Positions 2,377 through 33,810 of a DNA stretch of 64,000 nucleotides are shown piece after piece (the stretch's first letter is position 1; every line of letters begins with the position of its first letter). Under the pieces are notes generated by a model. That model was given only the letters and a program-made list of their open reading frames with translations. It ran no database searches and was not told the DNA's origin. The translations under genes and the position numbers were made by a program. This DNA comes from an uncultured Candidatus Saccharibacteria bacterium (GTDB lineage Bacteria; Patescibacteriota; Minisyncoccia; UBA6257), in the NCBI GenBank assembly GCA_964479005.1, contig CAYZJA010000002.1:32001-96000 (forward strand). The letters run 5' to 3'.

Positions 2377-2856
2377 TTAGGTGTATCTATCAGCTACTTT
2401 AGAAGCTCCATAAGATTCAGGCTTAGTCTTGACATTAAAACCAGAACCTCTAACCATGCCAATTATTTCTTGAAGCATCTCCTTTGTTTTTCCTCGAGAA
2501 CCAATGTCTACATGAACCTCAAAATCAAAATTAATATTTCTATCTTGAGATAAATTAAATAAGATTTCTTCGGCTAATTTCAAAGAGATCATTACTTCCT
2601 GATAAATTCTTGCCCTCAAACTATTAATCTTTTTTTGGTTAACTCTTCGCCAAAAGAATCTTCCTCCATGTCCAACGCGATAAACAACAATGGCGCTGAC
2701 AAAATCTGTTGTCCCATGATTAGCAGAATCTGTCCCAATCACAACTTTATATTTTTCCGTAGGGTCAGATTTAATATAAAAAAGAAGCTCTTTCACAAGT
2801 TCCTTATAACTAAATGATTTGCCACTTGGCGAATTAAACCTCTTCTTATTATCCAT
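2377..2856 (-). CDS. Hypothetical protein, possibly DUF458/YkuK-like RNase H-fold family
   Basis: 159 aa. Motifs VVIGTDS...SAIVVYRVGHGG...HVDIG...GMVRGSGF...KP.SY.ASKVADRY resemble the DUF458 family. The assignment is from memory only. Confidence 0.4.
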   Translation of the reverse strand: MDNKKRFNSPSGKSFSYKELVKELLFYIKSDPTEKYKVVIGTDSANHGTTDFVSAIVVYRVGHGGRFFWRRVNQKKINSLRARIYQEVMISLKLAEEILFNLSQDRNINFDFEVHVDIGSRGKTKEMLQEIIGMVRGSGFNVKTKPESYGASKVADRYT

Positions 2857-3088: not shown

Positions 3089-4630
3089 TTAACGGCTGGC
3101 TAATTCTTTAAGATAAGAAATATCCCTTTCATACCTATCAGCTATCGCCAGTACATTATCTCCGTAAAAACGATAACGTGTATTTGTGGATCCAGAAAAA
3201 TAAATCATCGCCGCGCGCCACTCTGCATCCCTTGTTTGTTTAGCTGCCCCCCATCTGGATAAATATAAAGCAGCGGCAACAAAAGCATCTCTAATATCCC
3301 AAGGATTAGCAGGATTATTACCTGTGATTTTACTCACCTTATCTTTGTAAATCATCCATGTTGAGGGGATAAATTGAGCCGGACCCATTGCTCCGCCCCA
3401 ACCAACCTGTTTTCCACTTCTAAACATTGGGCAGGAGACAGGAGTTGTGTTAGGATCTAATCCCAATTCCCTGCAAACTTGTAAAAATGGTTGTTGATCC
3501 CTGCTTGGTTTCATTATCTCTCTCCAGCTTTTACTCGGAGGATCCCCAGGACGGTTACAAGTTCCTACATTCTGTCCTAAATTAGATTCCTGAGTCAAAA
3601 TTGCTAAAAGAAAAGCTGGCCTTACTCCAGTACGACTACTTACCCAATTGGCTATTTCCAATGCTTCACCAAAAGTAACTTGAGTTTTTACCCCAATTAA
3701 CTGATAAATACGCGCTCTAATCTCATTCGCTTTTTGCCTTGATTCAGACAACATTTGCTGATACTTATCTTCGTTTCCATCAGTAATATGCCAAAGATCA
3801 ACTTTTTCACTCTCTGTTCTATTTAAATCATTTTTCTGGAGCAACTGCATTGCTAATAAGTTTTGAGTTTCATCCTTGTCACTGCTTAATTCTTGATTTT
3901 GCTTATTTAAAGTTAGCTTTAAGGCTTCAAGCTCTTCAATACTTTCTTGAATCCTTTCCTGAATATTATTAAGAGCATTGGAATAATCAAAAAACTCGCT
4001 TATTGTCCCTGACCCCAACAGTATTTCTAAGAGCGACACCTGCTTTAATTGATAAAAAGATTGTAAAGAATTTGTTAAATTTTCTTTTGTTGCCCCTACT
4101 TTATCAATAGTTTTAATAATAGAAGTTGTCGTTTCATCAATTCTTACATCAAGATATTGCAAATTGAGATTGGTAGATTTGATTTGAAGGCTTAATTTTG
4201 ACGCCCTGCTTCTTAATTCATTAATTTTATTTTGAAGGGTCTGCTTTTCCTGTTTTGTCGTAACTATTAATTTTTCATATTCGGCTATTTCTTTTTCAAC
4301 TGATGCTAACTCTTCCTCTAATTTAGCCCGCTCTTCATCATATAGAGCTTCTGCTTCTTTTGATTGAAAAAAGATTGGCGCTGTTACGCTGGATTGAATA
4401 ATGGAAAAAAGAAAAAAAGAAAAAATTAATAACGAAACAAATCTTTGTCTTGTTATTTTCGAACGAAGTGAAAAAACAAGGTTCTGCGGACAGAGTGCGC
4501 AGGTTCTTATTTTTTTCCCTTTAGAAAAAAAGGGTGGAATAAATATTTTTCTCTTGTTTTCTACAATTTCTTTTTTAAAAGGAAAGGAAATATCTTTAAC
4601 CTTCTTTCTAGAAATAGACTTAATAACCAT
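3089..4630 (-). CDS. Membrane-anchored coiled-coil protein with C-terminal lytic transglycosylase (MltB/Slt-like) domain
   Basis: 513 aa with an N-terminal TM helix and about 250 aa of heptad-like coiled coil. The C-terminus carries GWGGAMGPAQFIPSTW, an MltB-type lytic transglycosylase motif. The N-terminal 50 aa may be over-called because a conserved non-coding element overlaps 4474-4511. Confidence 0.6.
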   Translation of the reverse strand: MVIKSISRKKVKDISFPFKKEIVENKRKIFIPPFFSKGKKIRTCALCPQNLVFSLRSKITRQRFVSLLIFSFFLFSIIQSSVTAPIFFQSKEAEALYDEERAKLEEELASVEKEIAEYEKLIVTTKQEKQTLQNKINELRSRASKLSLQIKSTNLNLQYLDVRIDETTTSIIKTIDKVGATKENLTNSLQSFYQLKQVSLLEILLGSGTISEFFDYSNALNNIQERIQESIEELEALKLTLNKQNQELSSDKDETQNLLAMQLLQKNDLNRTESEKVDLWHITDGNEDKYQQMLSESRQKANEIRARIYQLIGVKTQVTFGEALEIANWVSSRTGVRPAFLLAILTQESNLGQNVGTCNRPGDPPSKSWREIMKPSRDQQPFLQVCRELGLDPNTTPVSCPMFRSGKQVGWGGAMGPAQFIPSTWMIYKDKVSKITGNNPANPWDIRDAFVAAALYLSRWGAAKQTRDAEWRAAMIYFSGSTNTRYRFYGDNVLAIADRYERDISYLKELASR

Positions 4631-28672: not shown

Positions 28673-30055
28673 TCATTTATTATACAACATTTCTTTCAAA
28701 ATTGTTATTTCCTGACAAAAAACAGGGTTTTTTTCAATTTCAGAAGATATCTTTTTATATGCATGAATAACGGTGGTATGGTCACGATTACCTAATTTTT
28801 CAGCAATACTGGTATAGGAATAATGCAACTCTTCGCGCAAAAGATACATTACTATTTGCCTTGGTTTTACTAATTCTTTCTTCCTAGAACGACCCAAAAC
28901 ATCGTCTTCTTTAAGGTCATAGAAAGAAACTATTTTTTTAATCACTTCTTTTGGTGAAATATATTTATTTGATTTATTTAAAATGAGTGACAATATTCTT
29001 TTGGTTTCTTCTAAAGAGATTGGACTATTTTTAAGGCGCGCATGCGCGATGACTCTGTTTAATGCTCCCTCTAATTCCCTGATATTCTTTGGGATTGCCT
29101 CAGCTATATACTTAAGAACATCATTGTTTATAAGATGGGATACATCCTGACTTTTGTTTTCTAAAATAGCTAATCTTGTTTCAAAATCAGGATAACCAAT
29201 ATCAGCTATCATACCCCCTTCAAATCTAGACCTTAACCGTTCCTCAATAGACGGAATAGATTTTGGCGGGCGATCAGAGGTAAAAACAATTTGTTTATCT
29301 TTTTCATAGAGCGTATTAAACGTATGGAAAAGTTCTTCTTGTGTTTTATCTTTTCCGGCGACAAACTGGACATCGTCAATTAAAAGAAGATCAAGATTTC
29401 GGAAACTTTTTTTAAACTCTGTCATTTTTTGATTACGGATAGCATTAACTAAATCATCTGTAAATTTTTCCGAGGTAGCGTATAAAATTTTCAATTTCTT
29501 TTTTTTTCTCTTTAGTTCATTACCAATAGCTTGTAGAAGATGTGTTTTTCCTAATCCAACGCCGCCATAGATAAAAAGAGGATTATATTTTTTTCCTAGA
29601 TTTTCTATTACTGCCAAAGATGCTGCATTAGCTAATTCATTATTGGTTCCGACAACAAAGTTTTCAAAAAGGTATTTTGGATTAAGATTAGTTTCAGGGT
29701 CAATATTAAATTCTAATTGTTCATCTAAAACTGACGATTTTGAAATAGTTGAAGAACGTTTTGTTTTTTTAGTCTCTATTTTTTTTAAAGAATCTTTATT
29801 AGTAGTAACCAGATATTCAATCTTTTTAATTTTAGGATTTAAGCTAAAAAGAGCGTGTAGAATTTGTTTATGGTATTTATTTTCAAGCCATTCTTTTGTA
29901 AAACTAGATGGGACACCTATAAAGACCGTTCCTTCTTTAATATCTAAAATAAAAGCATCTTTTAACCATGTTAGGTAATTAGCTTTAGAAATATTCAATT
30001 TAATCTCTCCCAAAGCTGCTTCCCAAAGTTCTTTGATATCCATAATTGAAATCAC
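28673..30055 (-). CDS. dnaA: Chromosomal replication initiator DnaA
   Basis: 460 aa with the AAA+ motif (GGVGLGKTHLLQAIGNE), sensor motifs and a C-terminal HTH DNA-binding domain. Confidence 0.95.
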   Translation of the reverse strand: MISIMDIKELWEAALGEIKLNISKANYLTWLKDAFILDIKEGTVFIGVPSSFTKEWLENKYHKQILHALFSLNPKIKKIEYLVTTNKDSLKKIETKKTKRSSTISKSSVLDEQLEFNIDPETNLNPKYLFENFVVGTNNELANAASLAVIENLGKKYNPLFIYGGVGLGKTHLLQAIGNELKRKKKKLKILYATSEKFTDDLVNAIRNQKMTEFKKSFRNLDLLLIDDVQFVAGKDKTQEELFHTFNTLYEKDKQIVFTSDRPPKSIPSIEERLRSRFEGGMIADIGYPDFETRLAILENKSQDVSHLINNDVLKYIAEAIPKNIRELEGALNRVIAHARLKNSPISLEETKRILSLILNKSNKYISPKEVIKKIVSFYDLKEDDVLGRSRKKELVKPRQIVMYLLREELHYSYTSIAEKLGNRDHTTVIHAYKKISSEIEKNPVFCQEITILKEMLYNK

Positions 30056-30741: not shown

Positions 30742-31434
30742 ATGAATGTTTTTGAATTATTGATTTTTCAACCGCTATATAATCTTTTAGCCTTACTCTC
30801 CAATCTAACAATGGGTGATTTAGGGTGGGCTGTTTTAATTTTGGCGGCAATAATTCGTTTTATTATTTGGCCTTGGTATAAAAAAGCCATGGGGGATCAA
30901 AGAAAAATGGCAAAATTACAGCCGAAAATTAAAGAAATTCAAAAGAAGTTTAAGAAGGAACCAATAAAGGCCAATCAGGAAGTAATGAAAATTTTTAAGG
31001 AAGAAAAAATCAATCCTGGCAATTCTTTCTTTTTTATCATTTTCCAATTGGCTATTTTTATTTCCCTTTATATATTTTTTAGGCAAGCCATAGTCAATGA
31101 TTGGGCTCCTTATCTTTATAGCTTTGTTAAATTGCCAGAACAAATAAATTATTTATTCCTTGGCATTATTGATCTTAAAGCTCCAAGCCTTGCTCTCGCG
31201 ATTATTTCAGCTTGCTTGAACTCCTTTTTGACTTTTATCCAACCAAGTTCAGGCCAGAACAAAGCAATGTTACTTGGCTTCCCTTTTATAATTTTATTTT
31301 TCTACCAGAGATTTCCCGCGATTGTTATTTTGTATTGGATAGGATTTACTTTAGTAAATCTTTTGCAGGAATATATGACTAAGAAAGAAACCATTCTCCC
31401 AAATCAAGCATCGGAAGTAAAGGCTATCAGTTAA
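30742..31434 (+). CDS. yidC: Membrane protein insertase YidC (short form)
   Basis: 230 aa polytopic membrane protein. The assignment rests on synteny with rnpA/jag plus YidC/Oxa1-like TM topology. Confidence 0.75.
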   Translation: MNVFELLIFQPLYNLLALLSNLTMGDLGWAVLILAAIIRFIIWPWYKKAMGDQRKMAKLQPKIKEIQKKFKKEPIKANQEVMKIFKEEKINPGNSFFFIIFQLAIFISLYIFFRQAIVNDWAPYLYSFVKLPEQINYLFLGIIDLKAPSLALAIISACLNSFLTFIQPSSGQNKAMLLGFPFIILFFYQRFPAIVILYWIGFTLVNLLQEYMTKKETILPNQASEVKAIS

Positions 31435-31508
31435 TTTTGAGCAAAGCCACGTTTAACGTGGCAAAGTGAGAAACAAGGTTCTGTGAACAAAGTAAACAGG
31501 TTCTTATT

Positions 31509-31982
31509 ATGGAAACATTAAAGGTAAAATCTTTTTTAGAAGAATTGCTTACAATTGTTGGTTTTGTAAATTTTGAGATTAGTACACAAGAAAGTCCCCA
31601 GGACAAACTTGTTCAGTTTTCAATTAAAACTGATTCAGAAATTAATTATAGTGGTCTTTTGATAGGACGTGATGGAGAAAACCTGCAAGCATTAGAATAT
31701 TTATTAAATATCTTTTCAAAAAAATACTCCAATGATTATCCTTGGAGAATTATTTTAGATATTAATAATTATCGGGCAATACAGGAAGAAAAATTAAGAG
31801 AATTTGCTAAAAAAGCGGCTCGTCACGTATCTTTATCAAAAAAAGAAATAGAATTACCGCCCATGAGGGCGCGAGATAGAAGAATTATCCATTTAGAGAT
31901 TGCTTTAAGAAGTGATGTATTCACAGAAAGTGTTGGGGAAAGGAAAGAGAGGCATATTATAATAAAACCGCAAGAAAAATAG
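31509..31982 (+). CDS. jag: Jag/KhpB-like RNA-binding protein (KH + R3H domains)
   Basis: 157 aa with a KH-like GRDGENLQALEYLLN segment and an R3H motif (RARDRRIIHLEIA). Confidence 0.8.
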   Translation: METLKVKSFLEELLTIVGFVNFEISTQESPQDKLVQFSIKTDSEINYSGLLIGRDGENLQALEYLLNIFSKKYSNDYPWRIILDINNYRAIQEEKLREFAKKAARHVSLSKKEIELPPMRARDRRIIHLEIALRSDVFTESVGERKERHIIIKPQEK

Positions 31983-32000: not shown

Positions 32001-32714
32001 TTAAGTAGCACCATACCAGCATCCTTCAGTAATACAATAATCACTGCCTGGATATGAACCATATCCAGTTGCTTCCATTAAAGATACATGGAGATGATTT
32101 CCCTCATCTAATACTGCCAATCCAGCTTTATTAAATTCTGCTATTATTTTTTTATTATCTTCAGAACTATTTGAAACTGAATCTATATCTACACAAGTGC
32201 CATCAAGATGACAATCATCGGCTCTCCTTGGCGTATAACTTGTACTATTGCATTCAGCGTCAATACAGGCATCATTTACCCACCACTTCGGATTTATATC
32301 TTTTAATAGAAGTAATTTATTTGCTAACGTGGAATCTAAATAAGCTTCTGATTGACCAAATGTATTATCATTTATTGGAATCCCCATATCTCTTATATTA
32401 ACTAAATTTTTTGATATAGCCTGATCTTCTGTAGTAACTTCTAGGGTAACTTCTGATGAGGGCAGGGTTATTGTATCAGAAGAACCTTTTAGAATATCAG
32501 GATTGATAGTATAAAGAATAATATAAAAAGCAAACAATAAAAGAAGTCCAATAATGGCGCCTGTGATTCTTTCTTGGGCGTCTTTTTGTTGGGCAGTATT
32601 ACCTCCAGAAGTAAGGTATTGAAAACCAGCATAAACAATCATGGCAAAAGCTAAAATTCCAGCGAGGCGAAAAGCCCACCAAATAAAAGTCTCGATTAAG
32701 CTTATTGGAGTCAT
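32001..32714 (-). CDS. T4SS pilin-like (VirB2-analog, two TM helices) protein fused to a C-terminal Cys-rich domain with HxD / HxH metallopeptidase-like motifs
   Basis: 237 aa. The N-terminus (AGILAFAMIVYAGFQYLTSGGNTAQQKDAQERITGAIIGLLLLFAFYII) fits the Gram-positive/CPR T4SS pilin pattern. The C-terminal ~140 aa contain CHLDGTC and NHLHVS. A LAS-type fold is a guess. Confidence 0.5.
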   Translation of the reverse strand: MTPISLIETFIWWAFRLAGILAFAMIVYAGFQYLTSGGNTAQQKDAQERITGAIIGLLLLFAFYIILYTINPDILKGSSDTITLPSSEVTLEVTTEDQAISKNLVNIRDMGIPINDNTFGQSEAYLDSTLANKLLLLKDINPKWWVNDACIDAECNSTSYTPRRADDCHLDGTCVDIDSVSNSSEDNKKIIAEFNKAGLAVLDEGNHLHVSLMEATGYGSYPGSDYCITEGCWYGAT

Positions 32715-32723
32715 AAGTTTTTA

Positions 32724-33419
32724 TTAAAATTGAGTAACATCGCCAGGATTAACTAGTCCAGGAATTCCTATTTCCCATTGGTAAGATTCAAAAATAGGAT
32801 ATTCAATTGACTGTATGTTTGGTGGAGCTGGTGGTTCTGGCAATGTTTGCAGAAATGTCTGCAGAATTTCATTTAAAATTATTGGGCATATTTGGGTAAT
32901 AAGAATAGCCATTGAGGTGCCAACTGTTGTGCCAAAAACCATTATATTTGCAGTTGCATCTGAAAGTGATTTACAGATATGCTCAATATCTACATGTTTA
33001 AGTAATAAATCTAAAATCCAACTTTTGACAAGTCCTGAAATATCATTATTTCCGTTTATTGCGCTTATAACCAATAATTTTAAGTCTTCTGGAATTACTT
33101 CATTATTCTGTATGATATTTATGAGTTCGTCTTTAACAGTATCTGTAATGTTCCCGTCATTTTGTATTGAGTTTATGAGATATGGTTTTAAATCTTCTGG
33201 AATCTCTTGACTGTTCTGTATTATGTTTATAAGTTCATTTTGAGTAAGTTCTGCTAATTCTGCGCCATCATTAAGGTTTGTTATTGTATCTAAGACCCCT
33301 TGTGGATCCAAAAAAGCCTGAGTTTGTATTGGGACTAAAAATAAACCACCTAATCCCAAATTTAATATCAAAACAATTAATACTATAGCCTTTGTTTTTT
33401 TGAAGATATTTTTAAGCAT
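32724..33419 (-). CDS. Secreted protein with three internal ~25-aa repeats (ELINIIQN..IPEDLK)
   Basis: 231 aa with a signal peptide. Repeats are visible in the translation and the C-terminus is hydrophobic. Confidence 0.4.
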   Translation of the reverse strand: MLKNIFKKTKAIVLIVLILNLGLGGLFLVPIQTQAFLDPQGVLDTITNLNDGAELAELTQNELINIIQNSQEIPEDLKPYLINSIQNDGNITDTVKDELINIIQNNEVIPEDLKLLVISAINGNNDISGLVKSWILDLLLKHVDIEHICKSLSDATANIMVFGTTVGTSMAILITQICPIILNEILQTFLQTLPEPPAPPNIQSIEYPIFESYQWEIGIPGLVNPGDVTQF

Positions 33420-33441
33420 ATTATTTTTTATTTAAAAATGA

Positions 33442-33810
33442 TTAGACTTTTTTTGGCGATGTTGCAGACGTAAGTTTAGTTACAGACGCAAGCTTAGCTG
33501 TTTTTTTTATTGCTTTTTTAACAGGTGCTGGTGATTTTTGGAGTGCATAGACAAGTATAACAGTTAAAGTGGCAATGGGCAAAATACTGGCAAATGGTAT
33601 AAGATCTAATGCTTGACCAATAAAAATCCATGTACCTCTTATTCCGCTGATAAGTGTAATAACAAAGATATAAATGACGAGAGGCAGGACAATAACCCAA
33701 ACAAAGAGGTTAATTCCAGGAATAAATCCCAAAAAGATTTCTATAACATCTTTAATAATGGATGTTATAAGCAAGAATAAAAATATTGTTAAGCTCATTT
33801 TATTTTTCAT
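33442..33810 (-). CDS. Small polytopic membrane protein (T4SS-cluster associated)
   Basis: 122 aa with 3-4 TM helices and a K-rich C-terminus. Confidence 0.4.
   Translation of the reverse strand: MKNKMSLTIFLFLLITSIIKDVIEIFLGFIPGINLFVWVIVLPLVIYIFVITLISGIRGTWIFIGQALDLIPFASILPIATLTVILVYALQKSPAPVKKAIKKTAKLASVTKLTSATSPKKV

Follow-up and report, generated by a model that had tools for sequence, protein, structure and literature searches.

Two hairpin-forming repeats, probable insertions of a very small mobile element

The DNA analyzed here is a 64,000-nt stretch from an uncultured Candidatus Saccharibacteria bacterium (contig CAYZJA010000002.1, positions 32,001 to 96,000; hereafter the window, with positions counted from its first letter), with a G+C content of 32%. 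It carries two copies of a short hairpin-forming repeat, copy 1 within the gene for a lytic transglycosylase and copy 2 between yidC and jag. The dnaA gene lies at 28673-30055 (- strand), with rpmH-rnpA-yidC-jag after it on the + strand. Cumulative GC skew has its minimum near 28-30 kb of the window, which makes this the probable position of the replication origin. Given an origin at this position, copy 1 is in the left replichore and copy 2 is ~1.4 kb into the right replichore. The features on which the analysis rests are the following (loci found in the searches are given as L numbers).

4453-4456, + strand: host TTAT tetranucleotide 5′ of copy 1, kept in the empty sites L130 and L131
4457-4510, + strand: copy 1, complete 54-nt element (TTTCGAAC...CAGGTTCTTAT), delimited by empty-site comparison and profile
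4457-4476, + strand: copy 1 hairpin 1, TTT-CGAAC-GAA-GTGAA-AAAAA, with a tandem G·A / A·G core
4478-4508, + strand: copy 1 hairpin 2, with arm AAGGTTCTG (4478-4486), centre CGGACAGAGTGCG (4487-4499) and arm CAGGTTCTT (4500-4508)
3089-4630, - strand: SLT_2-type lytic transglycosylase, 513 amino acids (aa), host gene of copy 1
31432-31435, + strand: TAAT 5′ of copy 2, including the yidC stop TAA (31432-31434)
31436-31507, + strand: copy 2, 72 nt inserted 3′ of the yidC stop and 5′ of the jag start
31447-31466, + strand: nested 20-nt block in the loop of copy 2 hairpin 1, containing the palindrome CCACGTTTAACGTGG
31475-31505, + strand: copy 2 hairpin 2, with arm AAGGTTCTG (31475-31483), centre TGAACAAAGTAAA (31484-31496) and arm CAGGTTCTT (31497-31505)
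30742-31434, + strand: yidC, upstream neighbour of copy 2
31509-31982, + strand: jag (KH/R3H protein), downstream neighbour of copy 2

The first-pass annotation had placed a 38-nt structured element with conserved arms and a variable centre at two sites on the + strand. Both 38-mers are found there (aaacaaggttctgCGGACAGAGTGCGcaggttcttatt, 4474-4511, and aaacaaggttctgTGAACAAAGTAAAcaggttcttatt, 31471-31508), with the same letters in the 13-nt left arm and the 12-nt right arm. The length of 38 nt holds for the matching core, but each 38-mer is the 3′ half of a longer insertion, of 54 nt for copy 1 and 72 nt for copy 2. The centres do differ, as claimed, but they are not unrelated: 7 of 13 bases match, and both have decayed from the family consensus YGARC-RAA-GYGAR, which is a small hairpin in its own right. 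A search for the arm pattern with a 13-nt gap and up to three mismatches returned two matches in the window and none in 100 dinucleotide-preserving shuffles, and a 57-member family profile matched just two segments (4454-4512 and 31461-31508).

Copy 1 is an in-frame insertion in a transglycosylase gene

Copy 1 lies antisense to N-terminal codons of the transglycosylase (codons 41-58 of the open reading frame [ORF] at 3089-4630) and ~150 nt downstream of the rplY stop, as had been described. The ORF encodes an SLT_2-type enzyme with a cytoplasmic tail, a membrane anchor and a coiled coil. It had been suggested that the start of this gene was over-called and that copy 1 is non-coding. The N-terminal motif MxIKSISRKKVKDI is kept in homologs down to ~58% identity, so that the ATG at 4630 is the true start. 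Orthologs of 495 aa, 88% identical, have exactly 18 residues fewer. Copy 1 is thus an 18-codon in-frame insertion, encoding I41-K58 (IRTCALCPQNLVFSLRSK) just before the membrane anchor, rather than a conserved non-coding regulator. Against the refuting condition set in the first-pass annotation the outcome is mixed: two copies only are present in the window, but the orthologs, instead of conserving the residues across the segment, lack it altogether.

In the DNA alignment a clean 54-nt block is present in the window and in L125 and is missing from L130 and L131. The empty sites read ...GTTATTTT(T/C)..., and the borders of copy 1 are uncertain by a 7-nt repeat, AAAATAA (TTATTTT on the + strand). 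When the window gene was compared with L125 (91% identical), the N-terminal 75 codons had seven non-synonymous and two synonymous changes and no frameshift, counted by eye; the reading frame appears to be preserved there, and the amino-acid sequence not. At L133 (P0010, P0020; ~2190-2230) the transglycosylase gene holds only the hairpin 1 half of the element, ~60 nt (hairpin 2 and ~11 upstream host codons) having been lost in-frame. This remnant is probably a decay product of the ortholog of copy 1.

Copy 2 separates yidC and jag

Copy 2 had been said to end at the jag start, and it does: its final base is 31507, followed by T 31508 and the ATG from 31509. It starts directly 3′ of the yidC stop codon. 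A protein-guided metagenome scan returned 78 loci coding for Jag relatives. The two genes are 74 nt apart in the window vs. 2 nt in most relatives; TAAttATGG or TAAtcATGG is the junction sequence in over 20 of these loci, whose Jag proteins are 88-97% identical. In L136 and L137 (Jag 96%) a 52-nt canonical element occupies the same junction, and the 72 nt of copy 2 correspond to this element plus the nested 20-nt block. The block is flanked by the direct repeat GCAAAG (31441-31446 and 31461-31466), is missing from L136 and L137, and contains a perfect palindrome without a second occurrence in the window; the block may have arisen by nested insertion or by hairpin-templated expansion.

A diverged element in reverse orientation (arms GGGGTTCTTAT and CCCGTTCT) was found at the yidC-jag junction of L161 (1400-1500, Jag 75%). 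This shows that the junction was hit more than once, and implies an independent insertion at one hotspot and a family wider than the exact-arm search shows.

The unit consists of two hairpins with a structured strand

Alignment of the family gives a unit with the order T(T/A)AT, hairpin 1, (A)ACAAGGTTCTG, hairpin 2 with its variable sequence, and CAGGTTCTTAT. Hairpin 1 is built from an outer stem, conserved tandem G·A/A·G pairs and two closing pairs, usually capped by a triloop of the GNA or AAA type. Its typical form is TTA-CGAGC-GAA-GCGAG-TAA in Clostridia and, in members of the Candidate Phyla Radiation (CPR), TTT-CGAGC-RAA-GCGAG-AAA; some lineages have an ordinary hairpin in its place. Compensatory double changes were seen at four pairs of hairpin 1 (36 cells vs. 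9.0 +/- 2.4 after shuffling; none of 500 shuffles reached 36), and at its centre the non-Watson-Crick G·A and A·G pairs persist in 55-57 of 57 sequences.

For hairpin 2, the first-pass annotation had proposed either a stem with a free loop or a spaced direct-repeat protein site. The arms indeed pair, AAGGUUCUG with CAGGUUCUU, in a stem that includes two G·U pairs and a U·U mismatch (in DNA, two G·T wobbles around a T·T mismatch), and in diverged copies found with a profile hidden Markov model this stem shows compensatory changes from C-G to T-A and from G-C to C-G or T-A. The centre, however, is not a free loop: it folds further. Of 94 distinct family centres, 60 form an extra stem of 4 bp or more, vs. 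1.7% of shuffled centres; these stems covary freely, with 41 different opening tetranucleotides. CPR copies often repeat CGAGC-GAA-GCGAG there.

A double-stranded DNA operator, with two direct AGGTTCT half-sites two helical turns apart bound by a regulator, would account for the finding that the window holds exactly two instances of AGGTTCT N15 AGGTTCT and no near-miss with this spacing. Across the family, however, the spacing ranges from 20 to 24 nt and tracks hairpin length, the sequence between the half-sites is constrained as a hairpin and the arms covary as a stem. The conserved G·T/G·A geometry would be meaningless in duplex DNA, and the site is missing in close relatives. We consider a rigid protein site of this kind scarcely credible.

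Because of the G·T and G·A pairs, one strand alone is well structured. With RNA parameters the + strand of the unit folds more stably than the - strand in 104 of 124 copies, and with DNA parameters in 89 of 118. Its two ends, TTTCGAGC... and ...GGTTCTTAT, do not form inverted repeats. At the apex of hairpin 1, and of hairpin 2 in many CPR copies, the sequence is GC-GAA-GC or GC-GNA-GC, the ultra-stable DNA mini-hairpin motif GCGAAGC (PMC13037366), although d(GCGAAGC) is described there as a structural motif and not as a genetic element. Its presence suggests that the single-stranded DNA form is important.

Both window copies are slightly decayed relative to the family. In copy 1, one closing pair of hairpin 1 is lost (C·A) relative to L125, and G·G stands in place of A·G; copy 2 has A·A where A·G is expected, and its centre TGAACAAAGTAAA is one G-to-A change away from the UGAAC-AGA-GUGAA form in L093. 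The 38-mer of copy 1 folds with -13.3 kcal/mol (z-score -3.4; none of 200 shuffles as good), and copy 1 folds well on either strand, but the 38-mer of copy 2 is not significant (z-score -1.3), and a 66-nt stretch of copy 2 has a z-score of -0.6.

The two copies might also be the template and variable repeats of a diversity-generating retroelement, since from copy 2 to copy 1 the centre shows four A-to-G changes, one A-to-C and one T-to-C, five of the six at an A of copy 2. The chance of this is negligible: both centres are explained by decay from YGARC-RAA-GYGAR, the repeats are 38-57 nt long and sit at gene boundaries or in an N-terminal tail instead of a C-terminal variable domain, and more than 100 unrelated loci carry them. 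No reverse transcriptase gene was seen beside either copy (the whole window was not scanned for one).

The family is shared by Clostridia and CPR genomes

A scan of one genome per species (596 Gb) with the pattern ACAAGGTTCTG, a gap of 11-15 nt and CAGGTTCTTA yielded at least 117 exact-arm loci, compared with ~1.4 matches expected by chance (uniform-composition estimate, 21 fixed bases). About 82 of the matches listed are from metagenome-assembled genomes (MAGs) of Clostridia (Acutalibacteraceae, Ruminococcaceae, Oscillospiraceae and others). The remaining ~35 come from MAGs that carry one of the labels Saccharibacteria, Shapiro-, Levyi-, Blackburn-, Nealson-, Portnoy- or Paceibacteria, Desantisbacteria, Leptospira, 'Gammaproteobacteria' and Pacearchaeota. 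These names are the depositors' labels and several look doubtful; the 'Pacearchaeota' contig (L017), for example, codes for a bacterial-type pilin N-terminus. Among the matches listed, exact-arm copies number at least 3-6 per MAG, and a single 484-kb contig from a close relative of the organism under study holds three of the loci (L014, L120 and L125).

The genome under study carries a third copy, in the spacer between a helix-turn-helix gene and recA (L006, 5320-5351), ~570 nt past the left edge of the window. It is of a 'hairpin 2 only' type (CAAGGTTCTG-CGAGCAGAGCGAG-CAGGTTCTTTG), is on the opposite strand to copies 1 and 2, and has a better kept core than either.

When 1,327 ORFs from the listed loci were clustered, no neighbour protein was shared beyond local synteny, the best cluster covering 9 of the 117 loci. 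BLAST of a two-unit consensus against plasmid and phage collections gave no matches, and a single IMG/VR pattern match (L129) was rejected as chance, as it lacks the hairpin and looks like coding sequence. A protein search with the commonest sense-frame translation of the element gave one 37-aa match, the word index having supplied six candidates only. A literature search by topic and by arm sequences returned primer coincidences only, with neither a paper that holds both arms nor one on such an element, and a description elsewhere is possible.

The main idea of the first-pass annotation, a cis-regulatory structured RNA (leader- or riboswitch-like) controlling jag and the transglycosylase gene, is favoured by the fold of copy 1, by the contact of copy 2 with the jag start and by the covarying stems. 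The copies are, however, oppositely oriented relative to their host genes, both are missing in close relatives, their neighbours in the family are unrelated, and CPR copies are mostly antisense to transcription. Copy 2 does not fold significantly, and Rfam gave no matching family: at the gathering threshold the window and 15 family loci returned tRNAs only, and permissive searches returned noise only around copy 1 (E ≤10) and only a tRNA around the L061 array (E ≤1). Regulation of this kind is therefore highly improbable. The PreQ1-I riboswitch (which shares AGGUUCU), group II intron domain V, attC sites, the bulge-helix-bulge of archaeal tRNA introns, type III toxin-antitoxin repeats and CRISPR repeats were dropped, since pairing pattern or context does not fit.

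Insertions in tRNA genes, ORFs and gene ends

In Clostridia, tRNA-Arg(CCU) genes that are complete in all other respects hold one to four ~50-nt units in the D-loop, with the units antisense to the tRNA. Beside these genes lie tRNA-Arg(CCU) genes without an interruption, called by ARAGORN, and filled and empty copies differ by 50 nt with TTAT at the junction. Local tRNA-Arg(CCU) arrays of this kind were observed in the Clostridia MAG loci L030, L119, L100, L061 and L094, in which some copies are intact and the others either end early, after 'atccatttaac', or carry one to four D-loop units. The element touches the 5′ end of tRNA-Ala(UGC) in two Levyibacteria MAGs, with the direct repeat TGGGCCC.

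Two further in-frame insertions in ORFs were found: at L035, ~20 extra residues lie between conserved segments of PBP1A, as judged against Protein Data Bank chain 3udf_A, and at L043 a 60-nt insert follows codon 3 of tsf.

These contexts bear on a mobile or removable element at the RNA level, that is, a mini-intron or retro-mobile unit cut from tRNA and mRNA so that the host genes stay functional. Both halves of the tRNA-Arg(CCU) genes are intact around D-loop inserts of 50 nt or multiple units, and the element lies within essential-looking genes (PBP1A, tsf and the transglycosylase), as such a unit would allow. All three coding insertions (54, 60 and ~60 nt), however, are multiples of 3 without a stop codon, which suggests that they are translated and not spliced out. 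Both the tRNA and the transglycosylase gene run antisense to the strand on which the G·U and G·A pairs are conserved, interrupted tRNA-Arg copies may be dispensable because uninterrupted ones adjoin them, and no ribozyme or intron family was matched. RNA-level removal thus seems very unlikely.

At tandem junctions all sequences read ...TTAT followed directly by the next unit, and the units of one array can be the same or different. TTAT or TAAT is found 5′ of the inserted block in the three filled/empty pairs, namely the transglycosylase gene, the yidC-jag junction and the tRNA-Arg D-loop. In 12 arrays the terminal TTA of the element forms the TAA stop of an adjoining convergent gene. Both neighbours are antisense to the structured strand in 12 CPR arrays and sense in 2, the bias in Clostridia being weaker, and CPR copies usually have a T-run 3′ and A-rich sequence 5′.

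The shared stop codon and this T-run and A-rich flank would fit a gene-boundary hairpin, recruited or original, acting as terminator, insulator or mRNA-end stabilizer as E. coli repetitive extragenic palindromic (REP) sequences do. The good fold of copy 1 on both strands is in line with such a role, and the unusually strict conservation across phyla would be explained by it. Yet the position of the stop codon already follows from the T(T/A)AT target, Clostridial copies end in TTATATCC without a T-run, termination would be harmful within ORFs and tRNA genes, and close relatives lack the element at both window loci. We regard this explanation as unlikely. An intrinsic terminator in the strict sense (G+C-rich stem and U-run) was rejected, as terminator scans call neither window copy and the Clostridial copies end as above.

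Probable non-autonomous mobile elements, possibly moved as single-stranded DNA

Both window matches are very probably insertions of a dispersed mobile-element family. Insertion, and not a regulatory motif, is indicated by the filled and empty alleles at both loci, the repeated hits at one junction, the tandem arrays, the unrelated contexts and the lack of a common neighbour gene. The best explanation of all the data is that the copies are ~50-60-nt non-autonomous mobile elements of one family, possibly moved as single-stranded DNA; we put its probability at roughly 0.6.

A mechanism can be proposed in which the element inserts directly 3′ of T(T/A)AT and itself ends in TTAT. Because its end resembles its target, new copies could land beside old ones and build head-to-tail arrays, and because the target resembles TAA-containing gene ends, copies would gather at gene boundaries. 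Copy 1 would have entered the cytoplasmic N-terminal tail of the transglycosylase gene, where it survives because the 18 added codons are in-frame and without a stop. Copy 2 would have entered the 2-nt yidC-jag junction and may later have gained the nested 20-nt palindrome. Since close relatives lack them, neither copy is needed by its host genes, and the effect on the host would be neutral or mildly disruptive. Three features suggest that a folded single strand is recognized: the conserved non-Watson-Crick geometry is confined to one strand, terminal inverted repeats are lacking, and the flank is T(T/A)AT. Mobilization may then occur in trans, as single-stranded DNA, by a hairpin-recognizing HUH/Y1-type enzyme, as for derivatives of the IS200/IS605 insertion sequences (IS) and for REP. 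We hold this single-stranded, HUH-type step only tentatively, at somewhat less than even odds.

Several observations weigh against transposition of this kind. No transposase is linked to the element: no Y1/IS200-like gene was found in the window or in 115 of the 117 listed loci, a weak negative, obtained by tblastn with IS200, IS608 and REP-associated tyrosine transposase (RAYT) sequences. The two Y1_Tnp genes detected (L036 and L012; Pfam E ~7e-9) do not adjoin the element, and the one in L036 is flanked by its own unrelated hairpins (TCACACTTCGGAAGTGTGA). A longer, gene-carrying version with the same ends was not found in ~1.15 Mb, although its absence is weak evidence. Junction repeats vary (3, 4, 5-6, 7 and 7-9 nt), and for this reason neither a fixed target duplication nor a clean no-duplication model fits; L043 and L040/L117 have direct repeats of 5-9 nt, and the tRNA-Ala case (L040/L117) resembles a true 7-9-nt duplication. 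The number of exact-arm copies per genome looks small, at 3-6 or more. Under the IS608 rule of lagging-strand-template use, the prevailing orientation in CPR, with the structured strand mostly antisense to its neighbours, is opposite to that expected if the structured strand is the active one, and the window copies are on opposite replication strands. Finally, it is unusual for a selfish repeat to keep 21 nt exactly between Clostridia and CPR, and the element could have a function.

A bolder form of the proposal has a small chance of being right. The units would belong to an undescribed cross-phylum family of the smallest known mobile elements (~50 nt), with single-stranded DNA hairpins as the substrate of a new enzyme; they would settle in tRNA D-loops and ORFs without destroying these. 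The insert would be tolerated or translated by the host or, more radically, be taken out of the transcript by a mechanism new to bacteria. The sheared G·A pairs and the symmetric GGTTC/GGTTC wobble stem are the substrate features in that form of the proposal.

Implications and neighbouring observations

For annotation, the start of the transglycosylase gene stays at 4630, and 4457-4510 and 31436-31507 are best marked as repeat or mobile-element insertions and not as regulatory RNA. This accounts for the odd 18-residue insert in a conserved cell-wall enzyme and for the 74-nt gap in an otherwise fused yidC-jag pair. More broadly, a very small mobile element would be common to gut and rumen Clostridia and to reduced CPR genomes, in which mobile DNA is thought to be scarce. 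Its size, strict cross-phylum conservation and presence in tRNA genes are unusual among small palindromic mobile repeats. The mobilizing enzyme, if found, could reveal a compact hairpin-guided DNA insertion system, and the presence/absence polymorphisms offer strain markers for uncultured lineages.

Three other features were noted. In a Blackburnbacteria MAG, near-identical hairpins TCACACTTC(G/C)GAAGTGTGA lie on either side of the RAYT-like Y1_Tnp gene (L036, 7117-7137 and 7808-7828), and together they look like a separate small REP-RAYT-type system in a CPR genome. Downstream of jag, from window position 32001-33810 (- strand) onward (L001, 3493-11312), genes were found for T4SS-pilin-like (type IV secretion system), small membrane and VirB4/TraC/TrbL-like proteins; this cluster is predicted to be a type IV secretion or conjugation-like module beside the replication origin. 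A 159-aa RNaseH_like protein (PF04308) is encoded at 2377-2856 (- strand), between rpsR and ftsK, and is kept in all relatives examined.

Comparison with known systems

Integron attC sites have RYYYAAC ... GTTRRRY core sites that pair as R″/R′. They were rejected as a match, since the arms of the element are direct repeats (AGGTTCT twice) that pair only via G·T and a GTTRRRY core is lacking.

Mycobacterial interspersed repetitive units (MIRUs) are reportedly 40-100 bp long and specific to Mycobacterium. Like the element, they are often in tandem with a period near 50 bp, and they lie exactly between stop and start codons in operons, as copy 2 does. In contrast, they are not defined by hairpins with conserved G·A pairs, and we know of no report of a MIRU inside a tRNA gene. 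The element is not a member of this group.

The palindromic elements of Rickettsia are said to measure ~100-150 bp and to be confined to that genus. They too are small, non-autonomous and hairpin-forming, occur in-frame in ORFs, where the added peptide is tolerated, and also in RNA genes, and have no linked transposase. The units described here differ in length (50-60 nt), in their unrelated sequence, in forming tandem arrays and in their Clostridia and many CPR hosts. In behaviour these elements and the MIRUs come closest to the units described here, but the element is not a member of that family.

REP sequences and their doublets (REPINs) number in the hundreds in a genome, are arranged as inverted doublets and lie on either side of their RAYT gene, which encodes a Y1 HUH enzyme. 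As proposed here, they are short non-autonomous palindromes recognized as folded single strands, and they gather at gene ends. Our units, in contrast, number at least 3-6 exact-arm copies per MAG and form direct tandems, and the RAYT-like gene in L036 has other flanking hairpins.

The palindrome-associated transposable elements (PATEs) derived from IS200/IS605 move, like IS608 in its 'peel and paste' reaction, by a single-strand mechanism. No parent IS with tnpA/tnpB and the same ends as our units was found, some of our junctions have 5-9-nt repeats, and 50 nt is far smaller than the PATEs described. Like the unit, however, PATEs lack terminal inverted repeats and have two imperfect hairpins and asymmetric strands, and IS608 inserts 3′ of a tetranucleotide (TTAC), as the element may do (T(T/A)AT). 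The IS200/IS605 and REP type, with HUH/Y1 enzymes, would be the closest mechanistic model for the element.

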